Assembly (NCBI GenBank): GCA_964456475.1
Contig: CAYVZI010000004.1
Span: 7,604-71,603 of the forward strand
DNA: 64,000 nucleotides
Source of the DNA: an uncultured Candidatus Saccharibacteria bacterium
GTDB taxonomy: Bacteria; Patescibacteriota; Minisyncoccia; Phycocordibacterales; UBA9973
Direction: 5' to 3'
The notes beneath the pieces are model-generated. The model was not told where the DNA came from and ran no database searches. It was given only the letters and a program-made list of their open reading frames with translations. Position numbers and translations under genes: made by a program. Positions 1,526 to 60,123 of the stretch are shown piece by piece (the stretch's first letter is position 1; every line of letters begins with the position of its first letter).

Positions 1526-1676
1526 ATATATAGTATACGGGAGAGGGAATTACATTCAAAATAATTCCTCTTTTTTACATTTATATTATATAATAAATAT
1601 GATATACTGTCAAAGACAGTATACTTCATACTATGTATTTGTAACCCTTGTTGATATACTTATCATAGACACAACC

Positions 1677-3383: not shown

Positions 3384-3417
3384 AAGATAGCATATTGTTT
3401 TTATCAAACATACAAGC

Positions 3418-5448: not shown

Positions 5449-5452
5449 TCAT

Positions 5453-16617: not shown

Positions 16618-19284
16618 ATGAAACGCATCGTTCCACTTATTTTTTCGATAGCAATTTTTGTTGGCATCGCTTTGCCTTTTTCAACAACGCTGTCACCTCA
16701 ACACGGAGTTCGCCTCACGGCGAACTCCGTGTTTGCTGCAGACACATACACTCCTGAAGCAAATGTTCATGGATATCTGGAAGATTGTGCCCTATTTAAC
16801 TGGGTTACAGGATCTGACGACGGGAGCATGGCCGGATGTATTGCTCAAATCGTCTACATTATCCCGTATCAACTTGGAGCGTGGGCCATGTCAGTAGCTG
16901 CAAAAGCATTCGACGTTGGAGCAAGTCTCACACTCTCGAGTGCCCTCTATACCAAAGGCGACCTTCTCACCAAGGGCTGGACTGTCACTCGTGACTTTGC
17001 CAACATCTTCTTCATTCTCATTCTGCTTTTTGCCGCACTCTCACTTGTACTCGACATGGATCTCGGCGGTGCCAATCCAAAAAAGATGCTAAGTTCTGTA
17101 GTGATTATTGCCATACTCATCAATTTCAGCTTCTTCCTGACAGAAGTAGTGGTAGATGTGTCCAATTCGCTTGCACTCGTTTTTTACAACCAAATCGGTA
17201 CAGTCCAAAAAGACAAAGTTACCGCCGTTGACACTACAGAAGAGGACAAGCAATTCAAAGACCACAACCTCATCAAAAAAATTCAACCAATCTCAACATC
17301 AATTGTTGCTGGATTCAAGCCTCAGATTTTCAGCAATCAGGATTTTTACAACAAACTTGCTTGTGCAAAAGAAAATGGTTTTTTCACAGACTTGAGCAGC
17401 AAAAAATGTACTCCAGCAGATGTCGCCAACAAAAAAGTCTCTTCTGGCGTTATAATTCCCGTACTAATCCTTGTGGGTTGTATGTATCTTGTGGTTGCAT
17501 ACAGTTTTGGAGTGGCACTCATTTCACTCATCGGGCGCATGATCAGCCTCTTTATCGCAATCATCTTTGCTCCATTTGCGTTTGTGTCCACAATTTTGCC
17601 TGCGACACAACACATGGCTGGATTCGGCTGGGACGAGTGGTTCTCAAATCTGATGAAAGCAGCATTTGCAGCACCAATATATTTTTTCTTGCTTCTCTTG
17701 GTGACGTTCATTGTAGATATTGATATTGTTCCAAAAAACACCACCAATATGTCTGCCGGCATCATTCTCGTTTTGGTAATGATCCAGTGTGCCATAGTCA
17801 TCACACTCCTCCTCAAAGCTACAAAAATAGTAGAAAGTGCTTCCGGAGAAATCGGCGGAATGATTTTGAAAGGCACCAAAGTCATCGCAGGTGGAGCAGC
17901 CGGACTCGTCGGTGGCGCCGCACTCGGTGGCCTTGCTCTTGCAGGGCAGGGAACTGTTGGATGGGTTGGGAAGAAAATTGCTGGAAGCGACCGTTTAAAT
18001 AGGTGGGCAATCAACGGCGGGGGAGTTAAAAATAATTTTATGAACGGTCTGCTTCAAAAAATTGGAAGAACTGGACTTGAAAGCGGTCAAAAACTGAGCA
18101 AGTCGAGTTTTGACGCTCGACACACAGGATTGGGAAATGCATTTACATCAGCAACAGGTATTAACCTTGGTAGTTTTGGTGCTCTCGCGGCAAAAAATAC
18201 GACTGGCGGCCTTGAGGGTGCTGCAGCACGCAAAGCAGCAAAAGATGAGGCATTTGCTGCAACATTAAAAAACGATGAGAAAAAGACCGAGAACCTTGAG
18301 GCTGAACTAAAGACTAAAAATAAAGAATTGGAAAGTGAAGAGAAAAAGAAGAGACTCTTGGAAAAAGAAAAGGAGATTCTTGATTTGGAAACAAAAAATC
18401 TTGAGTCCGAAAGACGTGAGGCTAGAGAAAAGATGAAAGACAATCAAGGCAATCAATCCTCTCTCGATTACATTAATGCAGAGAAAAAATTTAAAGATGC
18501 AGATGCAAAACTTAATGGTGGAAAGACAGCAAATGGAACAGTCATCGATCCTACAGATGCAAAAAGAACTCAACTTGCAGAAAAAGTGAAAGATATTAAT
18601 AAACAAAAAGAAAAAATACTTGAGATTGAAAAAGGCAAGAGGGACGCAAATGGTGATAAAATCAAAGCAGCAGATGGAGATACCCTTGCCGGTGGCAAGG
18701 TGGCAGATGCATTAGATGTAAAAAATGAGGCTATAGCAAAAGAAAGTTTGGGTATAAAAGACTACGAAAAAATAATAGAGGACAGTAAAAAAGGTGCTTC
18801 GAGAGCATTTCTCGCATACGAAGCGGAGCGTTCTGGATATCACACTAAAATCAAAACGGATAATTCAGGTACTGTTATCGGTCATCATGTTGACACTAAT
18901 CAGGCAGGCAAACGAAACGACTTCCGTACGTTCACTCGAATTGCTGGGGCATTTGCACTTGGTGGATTGACTGGTAATATCGCCAATCTTGCTACAACCC
19001 TCAGTTCTTTTAGTGGCGCTGTTAGTGCTTTTAGTGGCCAAGCAGCATTCGGTTTTGGGCTTGCTTCTACAATCAAAGAGGCACTCGGTGATTTTCAGGG
19101 ACGCAGTTTTGTAGCTGGTGAAGCAGGCCATCATACAGCAAATCCAGGCGGTAAACACGAACATGAACATGGCGTCTACCATACTCCAAACGCAGGATTC
19201 CTTGCTGAACTCGCTTCAATATTCAAATTCAAAGCAGGAGGAGGGGGTGGAGGCAGTGGCGGAGGAGGGGGTGGACATCATTAA
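16618..19284 (+). CDS. polytopic membrane protein, VirB6/TrbL-like candidate, with C-terminal coiled-coil and Gly-rich/His tail
   Basis: Signal peptide, at least 6 predicted TM helices in two clusters, coiled-coil EAELKTKNKELESEEKKKRLLEKEKEILDLETKNLESERREAREK, tail GGGGGGSGGGGGGHH. Assignment by architecture only. Confidence 0.45.
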   Translation: MKRIVPLIFSIAIFVGIALPFSTTLSPQHGVRLTANSVFAADTYTPEANVHGYLEDCALFNWVTGSDDGSMAGCIAQIVYIIPYQLGAWAMSVAAKAFDVGASLTLSSALYTKGDLLTKGWTVTRDFANIFFILILLFAALSLVLDMDLGGANPKKMLSSVVIIAILINFSFFLTEVVVDVSNSLALVFYNQIGTVQKDKVTAVDTTEEDKQFKDHNLIKKIQPISTSIVAGFKPQIFSNQDFYNKLACAKENGFFTDLSSKKCTPADVANKKVSSGVIIPVLILVGCMYLVVAYSFGVALISLIGRMISLFIAIIFAPFAFVSTILPATQHMAGFGWDEWFSNLMKAAFAAPIYFFLLLLVTFIVDIDIVPKNTTNMSAGIILVLVMIQCAIVITLLLKATKIVESASGEIGGMILKGTKVIAGGAAGLVGGAALGGLALAGQGTVGWVGKKIAGSDRLNRWAINGGGVKNNFMNGLLQKIGRTGLESGQKLSKSSFDARHTGLGNAFTSATGINLGSFGALAAKNTTGGLEGAAARKAAKDEAFAATLKNDEKKTENLEAELKTKNKELESEEKKKRLLEKEKEILDLETKNLESERREAREKMKDNQGNQSSLDYINAEKKFKDADAKLNGGKTANGTVIDPTDAKRTQLAEKVKDINKQKEKILEIEKGKRDANGDKIKAADGDTLAGGKVADALDVKNEAIAKESLGIKDYEKIIEDSKKGASRAFLAYEAERSGYHTKIKTDNSGTVIGHHVDTNQAGKRNDFRTFTRIAGAFALGGLTGNIANLATTLSSFSGAVSAFSGQAAFGFGLASTIKEALGDFQGRSFVAGEAGHHTANPGGKHEHEHGVYHTPNAGFLAELASIFKFKAGGGGGGSGGGGGGHH

Positions 19285-20304: not shown

Positions 20305-20670
20305 ATGCTTCATTCGTATAAAGAACTTATCGTCTGGCAAAAATCTATTGATTTAGGCGTGAAAGTATATTCAATCACCGAGAATTTCCCTCGAGATGAG
20401 ATTTATGGATTAACCTCTCAAATGAGGCGAGCGGCGATTTCTATTAGTTCAAACATCGCTGAGGGTAGAACACGAGGAAGCAAGCTTGAATTTATTCACT
20501 TTCTAAATATTGCCCATGGTTCGTGTGCAGAACTGGAATCCCAGGTTTTTATTGCTAAAAAACTAACTTTTTCAAGAGGTCTTAATTTCGACGAAATCGA
20601 AAAAAATATTCAGGAGATATTATTGATGTTAAGTGTTATGATTAGTAAATTAAGAAATAATAAAGCTTAA
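20305..20670 (+). CDS. four-helix-bundle protein (TIGR02436-like, formerly '23S rRNA intervening sequence protein'; Avd-related fold)
   Basis: Motifs EIYGLTSQMRRAAISISSNIAEG ... HGSCAELESQ typical of the family; flanked by inverted low-complexity repeats agcttttaagct / agcttaaaagct (20270-20304, 20667-20704). Confidence 0.8.
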   Translation: MLHSYKELIVWQKSIDLGVKVYSITENFPRDEIYGLTSQMRRAAISISSNIAEGRTRGSKLEFIHFLNIAHGSCAELESQVFIAKKLTFSRGLNFDEIEKNIQEILLMLSVMISKLRNNKA

Positions 20671-20704: not shown

Positions 20705-21109
20705 ATGAAATTCGCCGTTCCTCAATTTATCGATGTTGAAGATAAAGTTATTGGACCATTTACGTTCAAGCAATTTGCCTATCTCGTTGGGGCAGGTGGT
20801 ATGGTGTTTTTATGCTACAAGTTTTTGCCTTGGTATCTATATGTTCCACTTGGATTTGGGTTCGGAGCTCTGGGATTCGGATTGGCATTCTGGAAAGTAA
20901 ACGAGAAGCCCCTCATCAATACAATCGAGGCCATGTTCAACTATGCAATCAATGACAAATTGTATATTTGGAAAAAAGAAAAGAAAACAAAAAAAACTTC
21001 CGAACAAAAAACTGATGAGGAGATTAAGCAAATGCAGTACATTCCAAGAATATCTGAATCAAAGCTTCATGACATTGCGTGGGGGCTGGACGTATTAGAC
21101 AAAAGATAA
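20705..21109 (+). CDS. PrgI-like small membrane protein (VirB3 analog of Gram-positive T4SS)
   Basis: N-terminal AVPQFIDVEDKVIGPFTFKQFAYL followed by two TM helices, 134 aa, located just upstream of VirB4. Confidence 0.55.
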   Translation: MKFAVPQFIDVEDKVIGPFTFKQFAYLVGAGGMVFLCYKFLPWYLYVPLGFGFGALGFGLAFWKVNEKPLINTIEAMFNYAINDKLYIWKKEKKTKKTSEQKTDEEIKQMQYIPRISESKLHDIAWGLDVLDKR

Positions 21110-21118
21110 ACCGCTTTT

Positions 21119-21473
21119 GTCATACCGGACCCCGATCCGGTATCCATTCGCATGAATCATAATTCATACTATGTATATATACTTGCAAACAAAAAACGAG
21201 GCACGCTATACATAGGTGTAACAAATAATTTAAAACGTAGAATATACGAGCATAAAAACAAGCTTGCTGATGGATTCACAAAAATCCACAAAGTGAACAA
21301 CTTTGTACATTACGAAGAAACCAACGATGTTCGTTCAGCAATTACTCGAGAAAAACAATTAAAAAATTGGCAAAGAATTTGGAAGATAGATTTAATTGAG
21401 TCAACGAACCCTGAGTGGAAAGACTTGGAGTTATAAACGGCCCGCATGGATCCCGGATCGGAGTCCGGGATGA
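21119..21473. mobile_element. mini cassette: GIY-YIG nuclease gene bounded by 26-bp palindromic inverted repeats (gtcatMccggacYYSgatccggKatcc)
   Basis: Left copy 21119-21145 and right copy 21448-21473 are reverse complements (1-2 mismatches); a third solo copy lies at 56305-56330. Confidence 0.5.
21152..21436 (+). CDS. GIY-YIG nuclease family protein (small, UPF0213-like)
   Basis: YYVYILANKKRGTLYIGVTNNLKRRIYEH is a GIY-YIG core; 94 aa. Confidence 0.8.
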   Translation: MNHNSYYVYILANKKRGTLYIGVTNNLKRRIYEHKNKLADGFTKIHKVNNFVHYEETNDVRSAITREKQLKNWQRIWKIDLIESTNPEWKDLEL

Positions 21474-21572: not shown

Positions 21573-22232
21573 ATGGCATTAAGTGCACAAGCAACTCAAG
21601 AATTTGTTCCCATCAAAGAGGTCCGAGAGGGGACTATTGTTTTGAAGGATGGTGGACTTCGAGCAATCGTAGCGGTATCTTCCGTAAACCTAGCCCTCAA
21701 ATCGAACGATGAACAAATTGCCACAATCAACCAGTTTCAATCGTTCCTCAACTCTGTTGATTTTCCTATTCAGATTGTTGTTCAGTCGCGCAGGCTCGAC
21801 ATTAGACCCTACCTCCTCATGCTTGAAGGCAAAATGAAAGACCAGCATGAACCACTCCTTAAACTCCAAACCGCAGGATACATAAGCTTCATCCGTGAAT
21901 TTACCGAGCAAGTTGCAATCATGCGTAAATATTTTTATGTAGTAATCCCATACGATGAAGCGATACTCTCCACAAAGAAAGGTTTCCTTGGGGGATTACT
22001 TGGAAACAACAAAACCAGCGGATCTCAAACAAAAGATGAGATTGCCGCATTTGAAGAAAAAAGAACTCAGCTCGACGAACGAGTAAACGTTATTTCTTCT
22101 GGACTTGGTTCATGTGGAGCACGTACAGAAAGACTACAAACAGAAGAGGTAATCGAATTATTTTATAAGACTTTCAACCCGGGAGATATTCAGCCCGTTA
22201 TTTCGCTTGGGGATATGCCCCAAGCGAAATAA
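21573..22232 (+). CDS. hypothetical soluble protein; possibly the detached N-terminal domain of a long Gram-positive-type VirB4
   Basis: 219 aa, no TM. The pattern REGTIVLKDGGLRAIVAVSSVNLALKSNDEQIATINQFQSFLNSVDFPIQIVVQS resembles, from memory, VirB4 N-terminal regions. Its stop codon sits inside a perfect 22-bp palindrome. Confidence 0.4.
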   Translation: MALSAQATQEFVPIKEVREGTIVLKDGGLRAIVAVSSVNLALKSNDEQIATINQFQSFLNSVDFPIQIVVQSRRLDIRPYLLMLEGKMKDQHEPLLKLQTAGYISFIREFTEQVAIMRKYFYVVIPYDEAILSTKKGFLGGLLGNNKTSGSQTKDEIAAFEEKRTQLDERVNVISSGLGSCGARTERLQTEEVIELFYKTFNPGDIQPVISLGDMPQAK

Positions 22233-22301: not shown

Positions 22302-22658
22302 ATGAAAGAAAACAATATAATACAACAGAAAAGCTATGCCTTTGCCTTAAAAATTATTGTTATATATCAACATCTAACAAGGGAACAAAAAGAATTCATT
22401 CTTTCAAAACAACTGATCCGATCTGGAACTTCTGTTGGTGCAAATGTGGAAGAGGCGATTGGAGCTCAATCAAAAAATGACTTTACTGCAAAAATGAGCA
22501 TTGCCTACAAAGAAGCTCGCGAAACCCTCTATTGGATTCGATTACTCACTGACGGTAAGTTCCTACAAGACCCTCAATCTGTTACACTATTAAAAGACTG
22601 CGACGAACTCTTGCGAATACTTGGTTCTATAATTGCGAGCAGTAAAATTCGTAAGTAA
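22302..22658 (+). CDS. four-helix-bundle protein (TIGR02436-like, Avd-related)
   Basis: LIRSGTSVGANVEEAIGAQSKNDFTAKMSIAYKEARETLYWIRLL family motifs; flanked by inverted repeats aattaggaatta (22233-22270) / taattcctaatt (22660-22712). Confidence 0.8.
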   Translation: MKENNIIQQKSYAFALKIIVIYQHLTREQKEFILSKQLIRSGTSVGANVEEAIGAQSKNDFTAKMSIAYKEARETLYWIRLLTDGKFLQDPQSVTLLKDCDELLRILGSIIASSKIRK

Positions 22659-22712: not shown

Positions 22713-24551
22713 ATGGCACTCTTTGGATTATTCAACAAAAAAAAGGAGAATGGTGACAATTCTCGCATTCAGGCAAACGCCATGCCTATTTTTCCTGAGC
22801 AAATATATGAGGCGGCCTCACTCGAACTCAAAGACATCATTGCTCCCTCTGCACTCAAAATCGAACCTAAGTCTCTCAATCTCGGCGACAAAATTGCTCG
22901 CACCTATTTCGTCATTTCATATCCATCGATTCTCACTGACAACTGGCTCTCTCCAATCATCAACCTCGACAAAGTATTCGATATATCAATCACCATTCAC
23001 CCTGTCGAAACTGCTCAGATTCTTCGCACCTTCCAAAAGAAAGTAGCCGAAGTCCAGAGTCAGATAATGACCCGCGAAGCAAAGGGGATGGTGCGCGACC
23101 CAATGCTCGACATGGCAAACCGAAACCTGGAAGAACTTCGAGACCGTCTGACTCAAGCACAAGAAAAGATGTTTGATGTGGGACTCTACCTTACGATCTA
23201 CGCCGACAATGAGACCGAGCTCTTCAAAATCGAGAACGAAATCAAATCAATTCTCGAGGCGAAGCTCATCTACTTCAAGCCAGCCCTCTTCCAGCAAGAT
23301 GACGGATTCAAGAGCGTTATTCCGCTCGAAGACGACCATCTTCAAATCTATCAGAAACTCAACTCGGAACCGCTTTCGAGCTTCTTCCCGTTTGTATCAT
23401 TCGACCTCACCTCAGACAAAGGAATCCTCTACGGGGTGAATCGTCACAATTCCTCACTCATCATCTTCGACCGATTCAGTCTCGACAACTACAACTCAAT
23501 CATCTTCGCCACCTCTGGTGCCGGAAAATCATACGCGACAAAACTCGAAGTGATTCGCTGTCTCATGTTTGATACCGAAGTCATCGTAATCGACCCAGAA
23601 CGTGAATATGAACGCCTCGCAGAAGCTCTCGGTGGACGCTATTTCAATATCTCACTCAACTCTGGCTCACACATCAACCCATTCGACCTTCCACTTCCTG
23701 GTGAAGGGGAGACTGGAGCAGATATATTGCGCGGAAACGTGATCAATCTCGTTGGTCTTTTCCGCATCATGCTTGGAGGACTCTCTCCAGAAGAAGATGC
23801 GCTTGTTGATCGTGCAATTATGGAAACGTACGCCATCAAAGACATCACACCGGATTCTGATTTTTCACAAATTGAACCACCACTTCTTTCCGACTTCGAA
23901 ATGGTGCTTACCGGTATGGAGGGGACAGAATCAATCGTTTCCCGCCTTTCAAAATTCACTCACGGTTCATGGGCAGGATTCATCAACCAACCTTCAAACG
24001 TAGACATCAACAAAAAATTTGTAGTCTTCTCCGTGCGCGACATGGAAGACGACCTTAAGCCAGCAGCAATGTATATCGTGACCCACTTCATTTGGAACGA
24101 GGTTCGCAAAAACATCAAAAAACGTCTTTTGGTCGTGGATGAGGCATGGTGGATGATGAAATCAGACGATACGGCATCGTTCCTCTTCTCGATTGCCAAG
24201 CGTGGACGCAAATACTTCTTGGGACTCGCTACAATCACACAAGATGTGGGCGACTTCATGAAGAGTCCGTACGGAGTGCCAATCGTTACCAACTCATCAC
24301 TCCAACTCCTCCTGAAACAATCACCATCGACAGTAGATGTGCTTCAAAAGACGTTCAACCTCACTGATGAAGAAAAATATCTCTTGCTCGAGTGTAACAA
24401 GGGGGAGGGGATCTTCTTTGCCGGACTCAAACACGTGGCAATCAAGATTATTTCTTCATACACTGAAGACCAGCTCATCACGAGCGATCCTTCACAAATT
24501 CTCGCCCTCCAAAAATCTCGTACAGCTCTCACCGAGGCAGTAAAAAGCTAG
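22713..24551 (+). CDS. virB4: VirB4-family ATPase of a Gram-positive-type T4SS (TraE/PrgJ-like)
   Basis: N-terminal LKDIIAPSALKIEPKSLNLGDKIARTYFVISYP (VirB4-family signature), Walker A ATSGAGKSYATK, Walker B LLVVDEAWWMM, 612 aa. Confidence 0.85.
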   Translation: MALFGLFNKKKENGDNSRIQANAMPIFPEQIYEAASLELKDIIAPSALKIEPKSLNLGDKIARTYFVISYPSILTDNWLSPIINLDKVFDISITIHPVETAQILRTFQKKVAEVQSQIMTREAKGMVRDPMLDMANRNLEELRDRLTQAQEKMFDVGLYLTIYADNETELFKIENEIKSILEAKLIYFKPALFQQDDGFKSVIPLEDDHLQIYQKLNSEPLSSFFPFVSFDLTSDKGILYGVNRHNSSLIIFDRFSLDNYNSIIFATSGAGKSYATKLEVIRCLMFDTEVIVIDPEREYERLAEALGGRYFNISLNSGSHINPFDLPLPGEGETGADILRGNVINLVGLFRIMLGGLSPEEDALVDRAIMETYAIKDITPDSDFSQIEPPLLSDFEMVLTGMEGTESIVSRLSKFTHGSWAGFINQPSNVDINKKFVVFSVRDMEDDLKPAAMYIVTHFIWNEVRKNIKKRLLVVDEAWWMMKSDDTASFLFSIAKRGRKYFLGLATITQDVGDFMKSPYGVPIVTNSSLQLLLKQSPSTVDVLQKTFNLTDEEKYLLLECNKGEGIFFAGLKHVAIKIISSYTEDQLITSDPSQILALQKSRTALTEAVKS

Positions 24552-24595: not shown

Positions 24596-25606
24596 ATGCT
24601 GTTATATAATAACTGTATGTTTCGCAAAGGATTACTACTGATTGTCTCTATCATATTTTTTTCGCTTCCATTCTCTGGAACTCTTTTTGCGCAGACTGCG
24701 GGGCAAATTTCTGTTGATATAATTCCTCAAAATCCAGGTCCGGATGAGACTGTTACCATCTATTTAAAAAGCTACTCTTTCAATATAAATACAGCATATA
24801 TTGAATGGTCTGCGGATGGCATTATGCAAAAAGGCGGAGTAGGAGTTACCTCATTCAAAGTTACAACAAAAAAACTGGGGGACACCACACAAGTCGCAGC
24901 AAAAATCACGCCAACAGGGTCAATTCCAATTATAAAAAATATCTCCATCACTCCAATGTCAGTAGATATACTCTGGCAAGCTACGGATTCGATCGTTCCA
25001 CCATTCTATAAAGGCAAGGCGATGCCTACATCAGAATCAAAAATCAAACTTGTGGCTCTTCCTCAAATCGTATCGGTATCAGGAAACCGCGTAGCACCTG
25101 AGGTTCTTGTATACAACTGGAAAGAAGAATATCAAAACAAACAAGCGAGTTCTGGATATGGAAAAAATTTTTTCTTTACAGAAATGGATTATTTGAATAC
25201 TCAAAAAAATGTCTCTGTTGATGTCTCTTCTCGAGATGGAGGTATTGCTACTAGAGGTTTTGTTGATGTTTCTTCAGTAGACCCAGAATTACGTCTGTAC
25301 GCTTCGAGCCCACTCTACGGACCGCTTACCGATACAGAACTCACTGATTCATTCACTGTATCGACTAGCGATATATCAATCGTTGCAATGCCATACTTCT
25401 TTTCACCAGGTAATCCATCCTCGTCACTTCTTGAATACAAGTGGCAATTGAATGGTTCACCAATTGGCACACCTGCCATTCCAAACGCGCTCTTTCTCCA
25501 TCGTGAATCAAATTCGACAGGGAACGCCACGCTTGAACTTGTCGTCACAAACATTACCAAGCTGTTCCAGTCCGGAACCGCACGTTTGAACCTAACCCTT
25601 CAATAG
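24596..25606 (+). CDS. secreted hypothetical protein
   Basis: Signal peptide LLLIVSIIFFSLPFSGTLFAQTA; 336 aa. Confidence 0.45.
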   Translation: MLLYNNCMFRKGLLLIVSIIFFSLPFSGTLFAQTAGQISVDIIPQNPGPDETVTIYLKSYSFNINTAYIEWSADGIMQKGGVGVTSFKVTTKKLGDTTQVAAKITPTGSIPIIKNISITPMSVDILWQATDSIVPPFYKGKAMPTSESKIKLVALPQIVSVSGNRVAPEVLVYNWKEEYQNKQASSGYGKNFFFTEMDYLNTQKNVSVDVSSRDGGIATRGFVDVSSVDPELRLYASSPLYGPLTDTELTDSFTVSTSDISIVAMPYFFSPGNPSSSLLEYKWQLNGSPIGTPAIPNALFLHRESNSTGNATLELVVTNITKLFQSGTARLNLTLQ

Positions 25607-25607: not shown

Positions 25608-27395
25608 ATGAAGAAAAAAATATTTTCCTCGCTAGTGTGTGCACTATTGTTTTTTACAGGAGCATCTTTAGCAAAAGCTGAACTAACAGATATCAAAGGT
25701 GTTGTATCAGATCCAAAAATTACAATTTCAAGAATTGACGGGCAAATTATAGCAACCATTACAGGAACGCTCGATAGCAAAGGTGTCAAACTATACAACG
25801 ATACAAATGTATTAAGACCAATATACGCCCTTTATCAAAAACGTGATGTCAATACAAAAAACAGTGCTTGGAGTGACCGGGATGAGGCTGTTAGAGATCC
25901 AATAAGATGCAATCTTGACCCAGATACGCCACCAGAAGAAATTGGTGGATTGTCTTTTATTTGTACTGTTCCGAACTTAACCTATGGAACATACGTTTTT
26001 GACGTTGGTATTCTGTTTTCTTCTTTTAGCGATAGCTACAGTGTGCTAAATAATAATTTTATTATTGAAAACGTCACTGATGTTCCTTACAAGAGCGGTG
26101 TTGATGCGTCTGTTTCTATTACCCCAAACACCGACAGCTCGGTCAGTGTTACTGGATATTTAAATACCCCAGCCAAAGAAAGTTCAAAGGCTCTGAACAT
26201 AATCTATGGTGAAGTTTTTACATTTGACATACCGAACCAAAAAAGAACTCAAATCAAGGGTTATCAAGCTGACGTTTTGACAAAAGAGCCTGTGGTTGTT
26301 CATAAATCAGAAAATCCTCCTTCGTATAATGCAATTTTTACACCACCAGGTCCTGGAACTTATGTTTTGGCTGTTGTTGATAGCTCGGGTGCGCTTCTGA
26401 GCTCGTATAAGCAATTTACAGTTGTTGGAACGGGTATAAACCCAGATTCAGACAATGGTATCGGTCCAAATGCACTTGGCTGTGTCAACGAGAAAGACAA
26501 CAAGAGTTACTGTCTCCTCGCCCCACTGCCTGGAGTAGGGGACACTACGGGCAAGCTCGATGTAAGCACCGGAATTGGAAATTATTTCAACATGATTATC
26601 AAACTCGTCATGGGTATCATTGGTGTACTTGCCGTACTTATGGTGGTTGTGGGAGGTATTGAATACATGTCTACCGTCAACCTTGGCGAAAAGGAAGGTG
26701 CTCGCGCCCGAATTACCAGCGCTATTCTCGGTCTTCTCCTAGCTCTTGGTGCATTTCTCATCCTAAAAACAATCAATCCCGACCTCGTGAATGTAAATAT
26801 TGGAGTGCCAAAGGGGGTCATTGTGGAAGGAGACCCCGGAGATGATATTGACGAATCTGATGCGAAGATAGCAAACAGTGGTGCGATAACTCCCGGCGTG
26901 GTTGTCCCGACTGGAACAGCTCAGGAACTAGCAAAACAAATTCTCAATAGTTCAAAAATTACCTTGGCAACAGAATCTTGGAATGGCGGACCATCCGCAA
27001 CAGCAAGACAAAATATTTTAGACACAATCAACGGTCAAGGTGCGGTAACGAGTACAAGGGGATCAAAAGGTGGTGCTCGCGTGCCTCTCCAAACAAGTGT
27101 ACTTGCTGGAGCAATTGCTGTCTCAAACGTAACCCCGATTCAAATAAATGCATTTGTAAACGGAAGACATGATTCTTCGTTGTCTCGGCATTACATTGGA
27201 GCGGCGATGGACATTCAATCTGCGCCATCAGAGATACAGCGCACAAAGACAATTCTCGGTGCTTGTAAAGCAGCAGGAGCGACTGAATTTTTGGGACCAT
27301 GCAACAACAACCTTTCAAAAAAAATATGTGACGCAACCGGCTTTCCCACAAACAGTGGGCATCAAACTCACATACACTGTGGTTGGCCACGTTAA
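25608..27395 (+). CDS. T4SS-associated envelope protein: N-terminal secreted domain, internal VirB2/TrbC-like two-helix membrane hairpin, C-terminal M15 (LAS) metallopeptidase domain
   Basis: Signal peptide; VirB2-like MIIKLVMGIIGVLAVLMVVVGGIEYMSTVNLGEKEGARARITSAILGLLLALGAFLIL; M15 zinc motifs SRHYIGAAMD (SxHxxGxAxD) and HIH (HxH) near the C-terminus. Confidence 0.5.
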   Translation: MKKKIFSSLVCALLFFTGASLAKAELTDIKGVVSDPKITISRIDGQIIATITGTLDSKGVKLYNDTNVLRPIYALYQKRDVNTKNSAWSDRDEAVRDPIRCNLDPDTPPEEIGGLSFICTVPNLTYGTYVFDVGILFSSFSDSYSVLNNNFIIENVTDVPYKSGVDASVSITPNTDSSVSVTGYLNTPAKESSKALNIIYGEVFTFDIPNQKRTQIKGYQADVLTKEPVVVHKSENPPSYNAIFTPPGPGTYVLAVVDSSGALLSSYKQFTVVGTGINPDSDNGIGPNALGCVNEKDNKSYCLLAPLPGVGDTTGKLDVSTGIGNYFNMIIKLVMGIIGVLAVLMVVVGGIEYMSTVNLGEKEGARARITSAILGLLLALGAFLILKTINPDLVNVNIGVPKGVIVEGDPGDDIDESDAKIANSGAITPGVVVPTGTAQELAKQILNSSKITLATESWNGGPSATARQNILDTINGQGAVTSTRGSKGGARVPLQTSVLAGAIAVSNVTPIQINAFVNGRHDSSLSRHYIGAAMDIQSAPSEIQRTKTILGACKAAGATEFLGPCNNNLSKKICDATGFPTNSGHQTHIHCGWPR

Positions 27396-27452: not shown

Positions 27453-29123
27453 ATGTCCCGCGGAAAACTTCTCATCATCATTGCAGTCGTAATACTCGTC
27501 ATTGGCGGGTGGATGTTTTTGTCTTCCAAAAAATCTAATACTGTAGATTCTGACGGTACCCAAAAAAGTCTTTTGAGTACATTGTTTCCTTTTGGAAAGA
27601 ACTCTACAATCGACAATCCAACGCAGAACACTGATGGAGGGGATAACGGCAACAGCGACCAATCATCAACTCCAAATGCTCAAAAATACTTAACCCAAAT
27701 AACAAGCATCGCAACAGCAGGATACACAACCCTTCCAACTGACACCAGGCCAATAGTACAACACGACGTGTCTGGTGAAGTAAGCACTGAGGTAATTCAA
27801 ACGATATTACCAGGCGTACGCTTTGCAGAACGTGGCACTGGATACTTATACGATACCGATGTAAAAGGTCAGAACCTAAAAAAGGTTTCGGGGACAATTA
27901 TTGCAAGAACAGCAGAAGCACTTTTTGCCGACAACGGAGCGACTGCTATTTTGCGATACATAAAGACTGACAACACAACGATTGCAACATTTTTGGGTAA
28001 ATATACTCCGTCAAAAAACACACTAGAGGCTGGGTCACTTACTGGGGCATTTCTTCCCGAAAAGATTTCGACTATTCTCGTTTCTGCAGACCAAAAGAGC
28101 CTCTTGTATCTACTTCCTACTCCAAATGGCTCAGCTGCAATATCAATCAAAACAGACGGAACCGGCAGAAAACAACTCTGGAGTAGTGCCTTTAGCGAAT
28201 GGATTCTCGACTGGGCAAACAAATCTATTCTCGCAACAACCAAAGCAAGTGGTTCCGTCCCAGGATACGCCTATACCATCGATACGGCTGGCACCTTTCA
28301 AAAAATAATCGGGGGTGTCGATGGACTCACAACAAAATCGAGTCCTAATGGAAAATATATTCTGTATAGTGTCTCAGGTGGTGATGGTTTGAGTCTTCGT
28401 ATTCATCGCACAAGCGAAGGAACGTCAATAAACACAGGACTACAAACCCTTCCCGAAAAATGTGTCTGGGGAACAGAGTCTTCGTATTTCTACTGTGCTG
28501 CTGGACAAACAATCCCAAAAGGGGAGTATCCTGATGATTGGTACAAAGGGGCTGTCCATTTTAATGACAGCTTCTGGAAAGTGCAGGCTGAAAACGGTAC
28601 AACCGAACAAGTAAATGATGGTGAAGGAAACTATCTTGATGCTACCAATCTGTCATTCGATCAAACAGGAAAATATCTTGTGTTCATCAACAAAAAAGAT
28701 ACTTCTCTCTGGTCTCTGGATACCAACCCAAACAAAGTACAGTCTAACACTTCAAAAAACGCTCCTAGTTTTAATACAACTAAAAACGAAATTGTGATAA
28801 ATGGAGATACGACTGAAACCAATAACTGTGGAAGTATTGGTTGTTTTCAAGAGAATTTCAAGTCTTGTACTCCAGCAAATAATACAGCCGATATGTCACC
28901 ATTAGGAACTTTTTCCTCTACTATAATAGGAAAAGTGACGGGAGGTTGCAGTGTTAAATTTGTGTATACCAAAAACATCAATCCTACATGGGTAAATCAA
29001 CCAATGACCTGCACCTTGGATAACACAAAGGATTTTGAGGCCGTAGAAAAAAAGGTTTTGAGCGATACAGTACAGGGGACAAGCAATTGTACTGGCCCCT
29101 TGGCTTCGCTTCTTAGACAATAG
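27453..29123 (+). CDS. membrane-anchored beta-propeller-like protein (TolB-like repeats), hypothetical
   Basis: N-terminal TM LLIIIAVVILVIGGWMFL; repeated SPNGKYILYS / DQTGKYLVFI motifs. Confidence 0.45.
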   Translation: MSRGKLLIIIAVVILVIGGWMFLSSKKSNTVDSDGTQKSLLSTLFPFGKNSTIDNPTQNTDGGDNGNSDQSSTPNAQKYLTQITSIATAGYTTLPTDTRPIVQHDVSGEVSTEVIQTILPGVRFAERGTGYLYDTDVKGQNLKKVSGTIIARTAEALFADNGATAILRYIKTDNTTIATFLGKYTPSKNTLEAGSLTGAFLPEKISTILVSADQKSLLYLLPTPNGSAAISIKTDGTGRKQLWSSAFSEWILDWANKSILATTKASGSVPGYAYTIDTAGTFQKIIGGVDGLTTKSSPNGKYILYSVSGGDGLSLRIHRTSEGTSINTGLQTLPEKCVWGTESSYFYCAAGQTIPKGEYPDDWYKGAVHFNDSFWKVQAENGTTEQVNDGEGNYLDATNLSFDQTGKYLVFINKKDTSLWSLDTNPNKVQSNTSKNAPSFNTTKNEIVINGDTTETNNCGSIGCFQENFKSCTPANNTADMSPLGTFSSTIIGKVTGGCSVKFVYTKNINPTWVNQPMTCTLDNTKDFEAVEKKVLSDTVQGTSNCTGPLASLLRQ

Positions 29124-32958: not shown

Positions 32959-33181
32959 ATGTAAGTTAAACAGGTTTCAGTGTAAAAAAACAAAGAACTG
33001 GGTAAAAGTATGTGGAAAGGTGGTGTGAATAATTGTGTTTAGTGTGAATAAAGGAATCTATAATTTAGTAAAAAATAAAATGGTGTGTATAAACTACGAG
33101 TTTCAAAATGGTTACTAACAGTAAAATGTTATAAAGGTTATACACATGTATAAGTTTTGTGGATAAGTTACAATATATAAT
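32959..33181. promoter_or_regulatory. candidate oriC: AT-rich dnaA-dnaN intergenic region with at least 5 DnaA-box-like 9-mers
   Basis: TGTGGATAA (perfect, about 33158-33166), TTATACACA (about 33138-33146), TGTGAATAA x2 (about 33024-33032, 33043-33051), TGTGTATAA (about 33084-33092). Confidence 0.5.
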
Positions 33182-33745
33182 ATGATTGATTTCAACCAGC
33201 TATACAAATGGGTAAAAATTGAAACTGGTATTGATAGACAAGAGATTGTATCAAAAACCAGAAAACAGAAGGTTGTTACTGCTCGAGCGTTGTTTATTAC
33301 AATGGCTTCAAAAACTGGGTTCTCGTATAGTTCTATAGCAAAAGAATTAAAAAGAGATCATACTTCTATTTTACACCTTATAAATACACGCTCTGAATCA
33401 GAATTTATAAATAGAGTAGTAGGGAAATATGATTTAGAAATAAAAAAAAATTATTCCAATAATGAAGAAAAAATTAAACAACAATTACGATTTAGAGGAT
33501 TAACAAATGGTAAAAATTCTTATAAGTCGGTTTATGAGAAATATAATGGTAAATGTATGGTTTGTAGTTTTGATGAAGTTGTAGAAATTCATCATATAAT
33601 TCCAAGATATTTAGGTGGTAGTGATGAATTAGAAAATCTTGCATTGCTTTGTCCCAACCATCACGCATTAGCTGACAGGGGAGCAATTCAAATTAAAGGA
33701 AAATTGGAACTTATCCACCAAGAAATTGGTAATCCACAGGGTTAA
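33182..33745 (+). CDS. fusion of a DnaA domain-IV-like DNA-binding HTH with an HNH endonuclease
   Basis: N-terminus KVVTARALFITMASKTGFSYSSIAKELKRDHTSILHLIN parallels DnaA domain IV of the adjacent dnaA (KEIVKVRQIVMFILREDFNVSYPLIGQKLGGKDHTTVIHSCL); C-terminus CMVCSFDEVVEIHHIIPRYLGGSDELENLALLCPNHHALAD is an HNH motif. Confidence 0.65.
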   Translation: MIDFNQLYKWVKIETGIDRQEIVSKTRKQKVVTARALFITMASKTGFSYSSIAKELKRDHTSILHLINTRSESEFINRVVGKYDLEIKKNYSNNEEKIKQQLRFRGLTNGKNSYKSVYEKYNGKCMVCSFDEVVEIHHIIPRYLGGSDELENLALLCPNHHALADRGAIQIKGKLELIHQEIGNPQG

Positions 33746-35209: not shown

Positions 35210-37729
35210 TCAACTTATAATAATGTTCACATTCGCCGTTCCTGTGGATTCTACAGTATCAGTTCCAATAATCATCAATGAGTTTATACCCACCTGGATA
35301 TTTGGAATTTGATTTGGGGTGAAGGTAAAAGTAGGGGACGTACCATTTGCTGTTCCTACATACACATTACTCAAAAAGACATCTATTTTTTTGAGTGGAA
35401 ACTTTCCATTTGATGTTACTGAAACAGTTACAAGACTGTTTTCTGAAACAATACTCCCTTCTATCGGGCTCACTATTGAAATGTGAGGCATGTTTTCTTG
35501 GGTATGTATATCATCAAATGATGTTGGTTTTTGAGCCTCTGTTATGATTGTGTATGCTGAACTGTTTACTCTCCACCAATCTTGTACAGCTGTTTCCCAG
35601 TTGTGGTACAACCCCTCATCACGGGAATTTCCAAGACTGCGAGGGTTTGATCTATTTACCCAATGGAGAATGTCGTGTACATCAGTTATTACGTATTCTT
35701 TTCTTGTTGTCTTAGGTGTAAAAGCAGTAGCGAGTTTGCCAGATATCGTATCAATAACATAACTTGTTCCACCCTGCCAGTATCCACGAAGTACTGGAGG
35801 TAGGGTTTCGTATTCTGGATCAATTTCTGGTTTTTCAAATGTTTCCAAAGGGTATGACTTTAATGCCTCAGCCATAAATTGGTGCCAAATTGGCGATCCT
35901 GTAATTCCTTTGTATAGCGGAGTATTGTCGTTTAATCCAGCCCACACACCAGCAACAAGTGACGGTGTATACCCAATTGTCCAAAGGTCTTTAAAATCGT
36001 TTGTAGTACCTGTTTTTGCCGCTACTTGCCGATCAGAGAAATAGAGAGGGGATGTTGGTCCGAATGTTAGTCGACGAGCATTGTTGTCTGAGAGAACATC
36101 ACTTATTTGCAAAGTCACATTTTTTGGAAGAACTTGAGTGGAGCTGTCTTTGTATGATTCAAGAATAGTTCCACTATTGTTTGTTACAGAAAGAATTCCA
36201 GTACTTTGACGCGCTGTTCCACCATTTGCAAAAACACTATACGCAGAAATTTGATCGACAAGTTTTACTTCTCCTCCTCCAAGAACAAGAGAAAGGCCGT
36301 ATCGACTTGCATCATTGAGAGAGGTGATACCCAGATCCTTTGCTGTTTTTATGGTATTTGGAATTCCAACCATATAAAGCATTTTCACCGCAGGAACGTT
36401 GATGGAGCTTCCGAGTGCTGTACGGATATCCATTGGGCCAGAGTACCTCTCATAATCAACTGGCATGTAACAAGCGCTCTGAGGAGCACCATTTAGGGGT
36501 CGGCTGTATGGGTCGCATCGTGTGCTAAATTCCGTAGGAACATCAAACAAGACAGTATCTGGAGTGTACCCTTGTTTGAAGGCTGTAGCATACATATATG
36601 GCTTAAATGAAGAGCCTGGTTGGCGAAGAGCTGTTGCAACATTGAAATTACCGTCGATTTCTTTGTCGAAGTAATCTCGCGATCCGACCATGACGAGAAT
36701 CTGCCCAGTTTTTGGGTCTGCCGCGACAAGTGCTGCATTGAGTTTTGCAACCGCTTGTTTGCGGGCTCCTATCGTGTAATCTGCAACAGCCTTTTCTGCA
36801 ATCTGTTGCAGATTGTAATCAAGAGTCGTAATCACTTTTAAACCTCCAGATTCAACCATATCTACACCGTATTTTTGTTCAAGATATCCCTTGATAAAAA
36901 AAACAAAATGAGGAGCTTTGATACCGTTTGATTTTTGGGGATTCCAGACCACTTGTTCTGCTTTGGCTTCTGTAAACTGTGCTTCGGTAATAAATCCAAG
37001 CTCGTATTCACGTGACAGAACCAAGTTTTTACGTTTTTCTAACTCGTCTTTGTGCGATCCGTATGGAGAGTAACGAGTCGGTGCATTTGGGATCGAAGCA
37101 AGATATGCTGACTCTGCAATCGTTAGGTCTGCTGGGTTTTTACCAAAAAATGCTTGAGATGCCTCTTGAATTCCAAAAATATTTCCACCATACGGAATTT
37201 GATTGAGATAAATTGCTAAAATATCTTCCTTTCCATATTCTCTCTCAAGTTTAAGAGCAAGAATTATTTCCTTGAGTTTTCGAATAATAGTTTTTTCGCT
37301 CGTGAGCAAAGTCTGCTTGATTACTTGCTGGGTGATAGTGGATCCTCCTTGTCCGATAACACCAGGAATAATGCGAAGGTTTACAAGAACAGCACGAAGA
37401 AATGATTTTGGACGGAAGCCTCGATGGTTGTAGAACTCTGAATCTTCAATAGCAACTGTCGCGTTTTTGATATGTACCCCCATCTCTGCGTTTGTGATAG
37501 AAGTACGTCTTGCATCAGAACCCAGGTCGTACAACACAATCTCTCCCGTGCGGTCATAAATTTTGGTGGAATTTACCTGTTTTCGCGTTTCGAAGGAAGT
37601 GAAGTCAGGGAGACGGATAAAGCTAATCCAAATGATTGCTATACCAAAAATAAAGGCTCCAACACCAAGCGTGGTAAAGAAAACATTACGAATATGATGT
37701 TTTGAAATTTTTTGTAAGTGCTGTTTCAT
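35210..37729 (-). CDS. ponA: class A penicillin-binding protein (bifunctional transglycosylase/transpeptidase, PBP1A-like) with extra C-terminal domain
   Basis: GT51 motifs EDSEFYNHRGF and RKLKE; transpeptidase SSFKP, SxN, KTGTT; N-terminal TM; start trimmed to MKQHLQKISKHH (37729) to avoid overlap with tyrS. Confidence 0.85.
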   Translation of the reverse strand: MKQHLQKISKHHIRNVFFTTLGVGAFIFGIAIIWISFIRLPDFTSFETRKQVNSTKIYDRTGEIVLYDLGSDARRTSITNAEMGVHIKNATVAIEDSEFYNHRGFRPKSFLRAVLVNLRIIPGVIGQGGSTITQQVIKQTLLTSEKTIIRKLKEIILALKLEREYGKEDILAIYLNQIPYGGNIFGIQEASQAFFGKNPADLTIAESAYLASIPNAPTRYSPYGSHKDELEKRKNLVLSREYELGFITEAQFTEAKAEQVVWNPQKSNGIKAPHFVFFIKGYLEQKYGVDMVESGGLKVITTLDYNLQQIAEKAVADYTIGARKQAVAKLNAALVAADPKTGQILVMVGSRDYFDKEIDGNFNVATALRQPGSSFKPYMYATAFKQGYTPDTVLFDVPTEFSTRCDPYSRPLNGAPQSACYMPVDYERYSGPMDIRTALGSSINVPAVKMLYMVGIPNTIKTAKDLGITSLNDASRYGLSLVLGGGEVKLVDQISAYSVFANGGTARQSTGILSVTNNSGTILESYKDSSTQVLPKNVTLQISDVLSDNNARRLTFGPTSPLYFSDRQVAAKTGTTNDFKDLWTIGYTPSLVAGVWAGLNDNTPLYKGITGSPIWHQFMAEALKSYPLETFEKPEIDPEYETLPPVLRGYWQGGTSYVIDTISGKLATAFTPKTTRKEYVITDVHDILHWVNRSNPRSLGNSRDEGLYHNWETAVQDWWRVNSSAYTIITEAQKPTSFDDIHTQENMPHISIVSPIEGSIVSENSLVTVSVTSNGKFPLKKIDVFLSNVYVGTANGTSPTFTFTPNQIPNIQVGINSLMIIGTDTVESTGTANVNIIIS

Positions 37730-37787
37730 ATACTCATAATAGCATGTTCGAAAGGACAAAAAAGACCTTTTGTGGTAAAGTGTTTTT

Positions 37788-39155
37788 ATGAAATCGATAG
37801 ATATTGAAGAGTTGTTTTCTCGCGGAGTTGCGAGCTTTATTGATCCCGACAATTCATTCCGAAAGAAAATTGAAGCCAAAATTGCCGGCACATACAACAA
37901 GGACATCATCATTAAGCTTGGTATGGATCCAACTCGTCCAGATATTCACCTCGGTCACGCAGTGATTCTGCGCAAACTTCGCCAATTTCAAGATGTGGGC
38001 TGTAAAGTTGTTTTTCTGATTGGTGACTATACAACAATGATTGGAGACCCTACAGGCAAAAACAAGACTCGACCAGAATTGAGTCAGCAAGAAATCGAGA
38101 GAAATATGAAGACATATCTTGAGCAAGCAGGGAAGATTCTATCCCTTGATGCGAAGGTTTTTTCTTGGATACGAAATTCTGATTGGTTTCTGAATGTGAC
38201 CGATATTATTCCCGGAGACCCCAATACTTCTATTCGTGTTGGTTCTGGACTTGGTTTTGTCAAAGCCGGCTCGTTTCTTGGTAAGGCAAAAATCTTTGAT
38301 GATTCACGAATGCAAGCTACTCATTTGAAAAAAGACAAAACCCTAACGGTTAGTTTTACAAATGTATTGTCTACTCTTCGTCATATTACTCACGCAAGAC
38401 TCATCGAGCGTGATATGTTTCAAGAAAGACTTTCAAACGGGGGAGAGTTGTACATGCACGAAATGCTCTACCCTGTGTTGCAAGGTATCGATTCATTCGC
38501 GCTTGCGAATATCTACGGCTCGTGCGACTTAGAAATTGGGGGAACCGATCAAACCTTCAACATGCTTATGGGTCGTGATGTAATGCGCATGAATAAGCAA
38601 GACGAACAGGGGGTTATGTCCCTCGATATCCTCGAAGGACTTGATGGAAATGAGAAGATGAGTAAGTCATTAGACAATTATGTGGGAATTACTGACGCGC
38701 CGAACGACATGTATGGTAAAATACTTTCAATTCCAGATACTCTTATTCCAAGATATTTTGCACTCGCAACCTACACACCCCTTTCTGAAGTCGAGGAGAT
38801 AGAAAAATCTCTCGCTTCAAAAAATCCACGTGACGCAAAAATGCGACTCGCTCGAGAAATCGTCGCAATATATCATGGAGAAGGAGCTTCTCAGTCTGCT
38901 GAGACTCACTTTGTTGAAACATTTTCAGAAAAAAAGATTCCCGAAAACGTTCCGGAAATAGAAGGTGATTTTACAACGATTATCGATGCTATGATGCAGG
39001 CGGAATGTGCAGATTCAAAATCTGAAGCACGACGACTGGTGGAGGCTGGTGCGGTGACACATCTTGAAAGCGATGTGAAAATAACCGACCCAAACCAAAA
39101 ACCCGAAAAAGGAACATATCGAGTAGGGAAGTTGCGGTTCTTTAGGATTCGATAA
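37788..39155 (+). CDS. tyrS: tyrosine--tRNA ligase (with C-terminal S4 domain)
   Basis: HIGH region GMDPTRPDIHLGHAV, KMSKS (EKMSKSLDN), C-terminal S4-like ARRLVEAGAVTHLE. Confidence 0.8.
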   Translation: MKSIDIEELFSRGVASFIDPDNSFRKKIEAKIAGTYNKDIIIKLGMDPTRPDIHLGHAVILRKLRQFQDVGCKVVFLIGDYTTMIGDPTGKNKTRPELSQQEIERNMKTYLEQAGKILSLDAKVFSWIRNSDWFLNVTDIIPGDPNTSIRVGSGLGFVKAGSFLGKAKIFDDSRMQATHLKKDKTLTVSFTNVLSTLRHITHARLIERDMFQERLSNGGELYMHEMLYPVLQGIDSFALANIYGSCDLEIGGTDQTFNMLMGRDVMRMNKQDEQGVMSLDILEGLDGNEKMSKSLDNYVGITDAPNDMYGKILSIPDTLIPRYFALATYTPLSEVEEIEKSLASKNPRDAKMRLAREIVAIYHGEGASQSAETHFVETFSEKKIPENVPEIEGDFTTIIDAMMQAECADSKSEARRLVEAGAVTHLESDVKITDPNQKPEKGTYRVGKLRFFRIR

Positions 39156-59315: not shown

Positions 59316-59344
59316 TTTTCTTGATACTTATAATCTTAAATACT

Positions 59345-59380
59345 TGGACTCTTTGTCCAGGTATTTTTTTTATTACAATA
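59345..59380 (+). terminator. hairpin + T-run downstream of VR (cttggac-tcttt-gtccagg tattttttt)
   Basis: 7-bp stem with G-U, then T8; DGR target genes typically carry a hairpin just 3' of VR. Confidence 0.5.
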
Positions 59381-59720: not shown

Positions 59721-59737
59721 ACACTTTCTCCTGCAAG

Positions 59738-60079: not shown

Positions 60080-60089
60080 GCTCGGGCTA

Positions 60090-60123
<34 letters not shown>

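Follow-up and report, generated by a model that had tools for sequence, protein, structure and literature searches.

We report the computational analysis of a gene from the type IV secretion system (T4SS) cluster of an uncultured Candidatus Saccharibacteria bacterium, whose product of 595 amino acids (aa) joins, in a single polypeptide, a pilin-like membrane hairpin to a putative zinc peptidase domain of the LAS (Hedgehog/DD-peptidase fold) type. The gene lies in a stretch of 64,000 nucleotides (nt) of GenBank assembly GCA_964456475.1 (contig CAYVZI010000004.1, positions 7,604 to 71,603 of the forward strand), referred to here as the window, and the positions given below are those of the window. 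The T4SS is of the monoderm type of the Patescibacteria (Parcubacteria/Nomurabacteria-type), and we judge it on balance probable that the protein is a VirB2-like membrane subunit extended at both ends, which serves as a modular, pilin-anchored peptidoglycan hydrolase in the role of VirB1. The architecture is real and recurrent and is mechanistically suggestive for an essential system; the functional steps proposed for it are put conditionally throughout.

The start of the open reading frame (ORF) is separated by one nucleotide from the stop codon of the preceding gene, and its N-terminus, MKKxIF, is common to the protein and its relatives; for both reasons we prefer the ATG start to the public call of 586 aa (P0001), which begins at Val10 (GTG) and so leaves out 25608-25634 and with it the signal peptide's charged n-region, MKKK. 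A second public copy (P0040) has the full 595 aa. Kyte-Doolittle analysis gives a signal-type N-terminal segment and exactly two more hydrophobic segments, at approximately residues 323-359 and 366-394, and by the -3/-1 rule the signal peptide would be cleaved after AKA24. In a full-length AlphaFold model, built on an alignment of 32 sequences and having a mean predicted local distance difference test (pLDDT) score of 73.9, the signal helix is followed by two strand-rich domains, a helical hairpin, a disordered linker and a compact C-terminal domain (pLDDT >90). Since a Foldseek search with this model matched Fabs and the Ig/FN3 ectodomains of receptors, we describe the N-terminal part as a tandem beta-sandwich of no specific family; a phmmer search of the PDB with the whole protein returned a spurious defensin match and nothing else. 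From the signal peptide and the two passes through the membrane we predict an extracellular position for both globular modules and a cytoplasmic one for the charged loop STVNLGEKEGARAR.

The hairpin had been proposed, at residues of about 330-400, by an initial annotation of the window that was made from the sequence alone, and it is borne out both by hydropathy and by the model, in which its two helices have pLDDT scores of 76-86 (Table 1). The signal peptide, two hydrophobic helices and short charged loop follow the plan of a VirB2-like pilin, but the protein, at 595 aa and with globular domains at both ends, is not the small free-standing subunit (about 100-150 aa) expected of that class. 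Taken alone, the 112-aa core reaches the gathering threshold of PF18895 (T4SS_pilin) exactly, at 26.6 bits (E 6e-6), and the NCBIfam model NF045849 (Mbov_0395 pilin-like conjugal transfer protein) recognises the 595-aa protein at E 2e-5. PF18895 is, furthermore, matched by every one of the 49 relatives scanned (23 core segments, with a best E of 3e-11, and 26 full-length proteins, with a best E of 7e-10). The TrbC/VirB2 label of the initial annotation therefore holds through PF18895 and NF045849 but not through PF04956 (TrbC/VirB2) itself, where the protein reaches only E 1.4 (9.6 bits, cut-off 27.9) and so cannot be counted a member; that seven of the 49 relatives (4 of the 23 and 3 of the 26) match PF04956, with E-values down to 6e-5, makes a link to that superfamily plausible.

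The conservation of the core is not confined to hydrophobicity. The non-hydrophobic motifs NxxGC...YCLLAPLPG, GGIEYMSTV, GEKEGA and TINPxLV vary little or not at all across the core alignments, and YxLLAPLPG, GGIEYM and TINPxLV also frame the free-standing 138-aa pilin of a related genome (L019), which terminates just past TINPNLV. From this match the fusion would appear to be a small pilin into which one domain was inserted after the signal peptide and to which another was appended at the C-terminus, and homology of the hairpin to the VirB2-like pilins (PF18895) of the Patescibacteria is supported at the level of sequence. The same correspondence admits a different account, in which the 595-aa protein is a polyprotein precursor, cut before YCLLAPLPG and after TINPDLV into three separate products: a pilin of normal size, the peptidase and the surface protein. 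The core has exactly the extent of the 138-aa pilin in its mature form, the disordered linker follows directly after it, and there is precedent for two-end trimming in the conjugative pilins RP4 TrbC and Ti VirB2. We nonetheless consider processing of this kind unlikely: no processing protease was evident in profile scans of the cluster proteins, two cleavage sites would be required on the outer face of the membrane, and tethering is a simpler account of the conserved linkage.

The C-terminal domain, when modelled separately, has a pLDDT of 92.5 and a predicted TM-score (pTM) of 0.90, and it consists of a central antiparallel sheet with flanking helices like those of the solved LAS structures. 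Among the matches listed in a Foldseek search of the PDB, 49 of 50 are LAS enzymes; the top match is the zinc DD-peptidase of Streptomyces albus, the M15A holotype (1LBU; E 7e-4, probability 0.99), followed by the LD-endopeptidase domain of VldE, Hedgehog-N (probability 0.97; root-mean-square deviation (rmsd) of 3.8 Å over approximately 100 residues), MepA and phage M15C endolysins. The hedgehog/DD-peptidase fold expected of the C-terminus by the initial annotation is thus what AlphaFold and Foldseek return, and with the match to PF18895 the protein has both a profile match and a LAS fold.

The signatures SxHxxGxAxD and HxH, which the initial annotation had read in the C-terminal 100 aa, are also in place (Table 1). 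H528, D535 and H590 are the putative zinc ligands, and H521, H585 and H588 are conserved too. Searched against the PDB, a profile built from an 18-sequence alignment of the domain finds the N-domains of Sonic (Shh), Indian and Desert Hedgehog at E ~3e-5, in a match which spans some 30 residues (G-H-H-S-x-x-S-x-H-Y-x-G-R-A-x-D-I) and is accompanied by a second, sub-threshold match at H-I-H-C. H521, H528, G531, D535, H588 and H590 are invariant in the 18 sequences. In 170 family members there is no exception to H521, H528, G531 and D535 wherever these columns are aligned, nor to H588 and H590 in the approximately 60 members whose alignment extends to the C-terminal end; H585 is found in 50 of 54 family sequences. 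Comparison with the recognised M15 families was less productive: hhalign brought the motif into register with the M15_4 domains of relatives, though without significance (probability 5.8%), and against a PDB chain of the M15C type the domain profile reached E 1.8. We therefore place the domain among the LAS enzymes, closest to the M15A/Hedgehog group, but could show it to belong to none of the Pfam M15 families (PF01427, PF02557, PF08291, PF13539 and PF05951), so that the M15 peptidase of the initial annotation stands in its fold and zinc motif and falls short in its family.

A LAS fold need not imply catalysis; for Hedgehog-N there is a long-standing argument that it only binds. Gly584 stands here where Shh has its catalytic Glu177, and the spacing of H521 and H528 is one residue longer than in most relatives, both of which would suit a catalytically dead module that binds peptidoglycan or some other ligand. 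Yet the full zinc triad is retained, as are H521, the equivalent of Shh His135, which is conserved, and H585; glycine is, moreover, the second commonest residue at the column equivalent to Glu177 (of its 50 occupied positions 27 are Asp/Glu, 17 Gly and 4 Gln), and the module is exchanged among relatives for bona fide hydrolase families. We regard a dead module as very improbable.

The domain belongs to a large family, its profile matching 1454 cluster representatives (clusters at 50% identity) at E<=1e-3 and 682 at E<=1e-10. The domains found in 66 representatives that were scanned include T4SS_pilin (16), PG_binding_1 (15) and PG_binding_3 (12), together with YkuD, SLT, GH25, GH46, VanY and SH3; two or three of the 66 touch Peptidase_M15_3, M15_4 or Extensin-like_C weakly, and free-standing members from Streptomyces are annotated 'hypothetical protein'. 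This co-occurrence with peptidoglycan (PG)-binding and wall-enzyme domains supports peptidoglycan as the substrate, without identifying the bond that is cleaved.

The gene itself stands within a T4SS cluster, in the order PrgI, TrsD-like, VirB4, a 336-aa protein, the pilin-LAS protein, a 556-aa protein, jag-yidC-yidD-rnpA-rpmH, dnaA and dnaN, with ksgA upstream of the cluster. As far as dnaA, the order is the same at four related loci (L001, L002, L003 and L021; five with the window) and matches the layout near dnaA and the origin that is described for the T4SS of Patescibacteria (PMC12102498). Between the stop codon of virB4 and the start of the pilin-LAS gene there are 1057 nt, which hold a single gene. 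The species-representative genomes in which the pilin core is found are labelled Nomurabacteria, Parcubacteria and, for some metagenome-assembled genomes, 'Saccharibacteria'. The window holds no second pilin (PF18895) or LAS domain. It does encode a class A penicillin-binding protein (35210-37912), with a C-terminal Ig domain, from which it follows that the organism has peptidoglycan of its own.

This setting bears on whether the hairpin is a pilin at all or a mere two-pass anchor for a generic wall enzyme or adhesin, engaged in wall turnover or adhesion independently of the T4SS. The LAS domain is certainly widespread outside pilin fusions (50 of the 66 representatives lack PF18895, and many have PG-binding domains), and the pilin-core profile matched no solved VirB2 or TraA pilin in the PDB. 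An anchor of this sort would leave unexplained, however, why its non-hydrophobic pilin motifs are conserved, why it is the sole PF18895 protein of the cluster, why the gene is coupled at 1 nt to the cluster gene upstream and why its position between the virB4-side genes and a partner of 445-556 aa is strictly kept in all five loci. We think such an anchor improbable.

In a survey of 39 homologues with the pilin core, the core is constant and the C-terminal module varies, being of the LAS, SLT (PF01464), Peptidase_M15_4 (PF13539), VanY/M15-like (P0021) or Cys-rich lysozyme-like type, or one of several others. The equivalent slot holds SLT at L001, M15_4 at L002 and LAS at L003, L021 and in the window. 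The breakpoint falls in the linker, and can be sharp: P0009 and P0019 do not differ at any of the 401 aa up to where the hairpin ends (100% identity) and are unrelated beyond it (LAS versus SLT), and P0007 and P0023 are 96% identical and then likewise unrelated. Both enzyme types may be present together, L003 having two cluster paralogues, pilin-SLT and pilin-LAS, and four proteins (P0003, P0004, P0012 and P0013) carrying a second, lysozyme-like domain beside LAS. The pilin-SLT paralogue is a 626-aa protein (L003 positions 5073-6953) that lies between virB4 and a 331-aa gene. A further cassette follows the pilin core in P0028, P0032 and P0036, in which the motifs TGGTECWxH...H-x6-D...HWH suggest a second, unannotated LAS-like family. 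That the C-terminus is functionally equivalent to wall hydrolases is supported by these comparisons, which place SLT, M15_4, VanY-like and lysozyme-like domains in its slot. The fusion of a pilin-like hairpin to a putative wall hydrolase, for which the initial annotation named the role of VirB1, is real and is encoded inside a T4SS cluster. The annotation took the architecture for an unusual one; far from a one-off, it is the norm in this lineage, with the hydrolase interchangeable.

The N-terminal module is no less mobile. Between the window and L021, which come from near-identical strains (flanking DNA 87-93% identical, DnaA 99.8%, pilin core 96%, LAS domain 93%), the DNA at 25625-26466 shows no similarity and the ectodomains are 23.8% identical as proteins; the N-terminal domain is, on this comparison, swapped between the two strains.

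Exchange at both ends raises the alternative of a host-directed 'evolved pilin', built into a pilus-like structure of the T4SS, or placed at its tip or base, and carrying the peptidase to the wall of a host bacterium, with the Ig-like module recognising the host surface and the hydrolase cassette exchanged to suit the chemistry of the host peptidoglycan. The T4SS and pilin arrays of Patescibacteria are needed for epibiotic growth, and it has been proposed that lytic enzymes open a way through host envelopes (PMC10633639, PMC11665869, PMC12857230). This alternative draws, besides, on the replacement of the enzyme between proteins which are 96% or 100% identical upstream, on that of the ectodomain between strains as close as those compared above, and on the termini of the hairpin, which are both predicted to be extracellular. 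It has to contend with a filament in which some 260 and 200 residues of globular mass per subunit would be hard to fit into a VirB2 helical arrangement, and with the lack of an immunity gene specific to the cassette: since the neighbours on both sides are homologous (44-90%) across the LAS, SLT and M15_4 loci, whatever the cassette, none can be linked to it. A toxin-immunity arrangement was rejected on the same ground, that the neighbouring genes do not change with the cassette. Exchange of cassettes at both ends in close relatives looks like evolution at a host interface, and for this reason we hold the host-directed reading to be possible, if doubtful. Doubtful to a like degree, or slightly more so, is its bolder form, in which Patescibacteria have turned a T4SS pilin into a modular host-facing weapon or tool, a polymerising or tip subunit with a host-recognition domain and a peptidoglycan-cutting enzyme, both exchangeable, on its outer face, and in which the pilus bores through the host wall to establish the connection for epibiotic feeding; if it were true, the exchange of cassettes at both ends would track host range.

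To return to the hydrolase in the role of VirB1, the protein would be exported by the Sec pathway and lose its signal peptide, after which the two-helix hairpin would span the membrane twice, its short charged loop facing the cytoplasm. Outside the cell would stand the strain-variable Ig-like pair, N-terminally, and the zinc LAS peptidase, C-terminally, on a linker of some 35 residues. The peptidase would cut peptide stems or cross-links of the peptidoglycan beside the secretion channel, so opening the producer's own wall to let the machine be assembled, a job done elsewhere by separate enzymes of the VirB1 type (PrgK, TraG and CwlT). What places a protein in the VirB1 class, a hydrolase domain that is encoded in a T4SS cluster and exposed outside the cell, is found here, the outward orientation being that predicted from the topology. 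Most Patescibacteria with VirB2 lack a recognisable VirB1 (PMC12102498), and a hydrolase which is physically part of the pilin-like protein would explain its absence.

Several observations weigh against this reading. The speed at which cassettes are swapped and the hypervariability of the ectodomain are more in keeping with a role directed at the host than with routine remodelling of the wall, and we know of no VirB2-type filament that is compatible with large domains at both termini of its subunit. Against PF18895 the full-length sequence reaches 22.9 bits (E 9e-5), under the 26.6-bit cut-off which the isolated core attains. The last 195 residues match no Pfam family, M15 models included, even at E<=10, and no model in NCBIfam or PHROGs recognises the C-terminal domain. 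Its TM-scores against solved LAS structures are modest, at 0.35-0.40 on the query with the rmsd and length given above for Hedgehog-N, and at the place of the catalytic Glu177 of Shh, where a general base would be looked for, it has Gly584.

Table 1. Features of the pilin-LAS gene, its T4SS cluster and the retroelement of the window.
Feature	Position	Strand	Description
Whole gene	25608..27395	+	ORF of 595 aa, ATG start; signal peptide, variable ectodomain, pilin-like hairpin, linker, LAS peptidase
Signal peptide	25608..25679	+	Residues 1-24 (MKKKIFSSLVCALLFFTGASLAKA); hydrophobic segment 4-23, model helix 3-17
Variable N-terminal ectodomain	25680..26468	+	Residues 25-287; two beta-sandwich (Ig/FN3-like) domains; model strand blocks 33-156 and 170-272
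Conserved pilin-like core	26469..26789	+	Residues 288-394; NxxGC...YCLLAPLPG, helix 1, charged loop STVNLGEKEGARAR, helix 2, TINPDLV
Helix 1	26577-26672	+	Residues 324-355 (full-length AlphaFold model)
Helix 2	26682-26774	+	Residues 359-389 (full-length AlphaFold model)
Flexible acidic Gly/Pro-rich linker	26790..26897	+	Residues 395-430; pLDDT <50 at 396-414, no secondary structure at 395-437
LAS (Hedgehog/DD-peptidase fold) zinc peptidase domain	26898..27392	+	Residues 431-595 (165 aa); AlphaFold, Foldseek, profile and conservation
SRHYIGAAMD	27183..27212	+	Residues 526-535; H-x6-D half of LAS zinc site
HIH	27369..27377	+	Residues 588-590; H-x-H half of LAS zinc site
Polytopic 888-aa membrane protein, candidate VirB6/PrgH analogue	16618..19284	+	At least 6 hydrophobic segments; homologous gene of ~900 aa in same place in L001-L003
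PrgI/VirB3-like protein	20705..21109	+	PF12666 at 32 bits (cut-off 27)
TrsD/TraC-like protein, resembling VirB4 N-terminal domain	21573..22232	+	NF041427 TrsD, E 7e-8; NF045975
VirB4-like ATPase, monoderm (CD1110) type	22713..24551	+	NF045971, 377.6 bits (cut-off 325 bits); PF19044
Secreted 336-aa conserved partner	24596..25606	+	1-nt gap to pilin-LAS gene; 47-71% identity in L001-L003
Membrane-anchored 556-aa conserved partner	27453..29123	+	44-90% identical across LAS, SLT and M15_4 loci
Retroelement variable repeat	59195-59297		3' end of ORF 58620-59315
Retroelement template repeat	59615-59717		
Retroelement reverse transcriptase	60092-61222		RVT_1

Parts of the architecture recall known systems. 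With the VirB2-like pilins of Patescibacteria (Quinonero-Coronel et al. 2025, PMC12102498), including those of the Southlakia epibionticum pilin array (Wang et al. 2023, PMC10633639), the protein has in common the signal peptide, the motifs YxLLAPLPG/GGIEYM/TINPxLV and the hairpin, as well as its adjacency to virB4 in a monoderm-type T4SS near dnaA; the described pilins are, however, small and free-standing, like the 138-aa example above, whereas here some 260 Ig-like residues and some 200 residues of linker and peptidase are added. To PrgK (pCF10), TraG (pIP501) and CwlT (ICEBs1) it is comparable in being encoded in a T4SS cluster and anchored in the membrane with its catalytic domain, by prediction, outside. 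PrgK and TraG pair a glycosidase with a peptidase (PMC12102498), a combination which the paralogues of L003 and the two-domain proteins of the P0003 type recall by analogy. Those enzymes differ from ours in having a single N-terminal anchor and SLT, GH73, CHAP or NlpC/P60 domains, where ours has a pilin-homologous hairpin and a LAS zinc peptidase; the 595-aa protein has no Pfam match to SLT, CHAP or NlpC/P60, the domains by which homology to VirB1/TrsG/CD419 would be recognised.

The peptidase domain has its own precedents. The H-x6-D and H-x-H motifs that define the LAS zinc site (Roelink 2018, PMC6027127) are shared with the zinc D-Ala-D-Ala carboxypeptidase of Streptomyces albus G (M15A, 1LBU), the best structural match, which carries an N-terminal PG_binding_1 domain, as do many members of the LAS family. 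It is nevertheless 18% identical to the domain in the window, with a TM-score of 0.33-0.40, and our domain has no Pfam M15 match. Hedgehog-N, the best sequence match in the PDB, has in common with it the zinc motifs, the equivalent of Shh H135 and the LAS fold, but is only ~18-22% identical; the acidic residues of its Ca2+ site are absent (AFVNGRH here, EGWDEDGHH in Shh) and Glu177 is replaced by Gly. The bacHh proteins have >50% identity to ShhN over ~145 aa and identical Zn, Ca and E177 residues (Roelink 2018, PMC6027127). With ~20% identity and without the Ca2+-site acids, the domain described here is not one of them. In the design of the whole, lastly, there is a functional analogy to the evolved VgrG/PAAR/Hcp effectors of type VI secretion systems and to polymorphic toxins, in which a constant core, a motif and a linker precede interchangeable enzymatic C-termini, peptidoglycan hydrolases among them; the analogy is one of function only, the secretion system being a different one and the cassettes having no linked immunity gene.

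Patescibacteria pilins and pilin arrays, the hydrolases of monoderm T4SS and the relationship of LAS enzymes to Hedgehog are already described (PMC12102498, PMC10633639, PMC12857230, PMC6027127). Neither our full-text literature searches nor the main papers on the Patescibacteria T4SS yielded a description of a pilin-hydrolase fusion or of the exchange of its cassettes; the supplementary tables of PMC12102498 give component assignments only, and the fusion may be implicit in the domain architectures of databases.

Among the other genes of the cluster, the 336-aa partner has no Pfam, NCBIfam, PHROG or PDB sequence match, the 556-aa partner no family or PDB sequence match, and the 888-aa membrane protein no family match in profile library scans (PHROGs among them). 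At 556 aa the downstream partner is longer than its relatives (425-445 aa); the extra C-terminal residues, some 130 in number (28718-29123), are Cys-rich, and DNA similarity to L021 stops at 28717. The homologue of the TrsD-like protein in L001-L003 is a PF26593 TraC-like protein. We considered whether virB4 had been split by an insertion and rejected this, a 219-aa TrsD/TraC-like protein and a 612-aa VirB4 being normal in L001-L003. The sole variable part of that stretch among the relatives is the small 23S_rRNA_IVP gene between the two. Two genes for such four-helix-bundle proteins (20305-20670 and 22302-22658) and a GIY-YIG nuclease gene (21152-21436) are found amid the T4SS genes, and since their presence and position vary among L001-L003 they would appear to be small mobile insertions. 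At the head of the cluster, a 932-aa ORF with a signal peptide (13790-16588), whose product would be secreted, has no Pfam or PHROG match, and the same is true of large ORFs of 646, 676 and 1096 aa within 1443-8743.

Elsewhere in the window there is a diversity-generating retroelement (58620-61222), with a 103-nt repeat pair whose mismatches all fall at adenines of the template copy and a 231-aa target protein that has no Pfam match. Between dnaA and dnaN, an ORF of 187 aa (33182-33745) combines a segment like the C-terminal helix-turn-helix of DnaA with an HNH endonuclease; the stretch of ~680 nt which holds it (33053-33732) stands in place of ~120 nt in L021 and is probably an insertion of the homing-endonuclease type at the origin. 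Beyond the origin, where the class A penicillin-binding protein is also encoded, there is a PilB-like T2SSE ATPase of the type IV pilus machinery (42523-44217).

Patescibacteria widely possess a T4SS, located at the replication origin; in the only species tested, epibiotic growth cannot proceed without it, yet its function has been called completely unknown (PMC11665869, PMC12857230). A survey that found VirB2-like pilins in most genomes and few VirB1 proteins concluded that a hydrolase may not be required for the biogenesis of the pilus (PMC12102498). Our analysis suggests a different answer, at least for the Parcubacteria/Nomurabacteria lineage, namely that the hydrolase is to be found within the pilin-like protein, swapped between LAS, SLT, M15 and lysozyme-like forms. 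It also brings to light a large family of LAS peptidases, of approximately 1450 clusters, which has no model in the profile libraries searched and whose closest sequence match in the PDB is the zinc motif of Hedgehog. The fusion offers a testable handle on how a T4SS crosses peptidoglycan, whether that of the producer or that of the host, and its hypervariable Ig-like module is a candidate determinant of host specificity.

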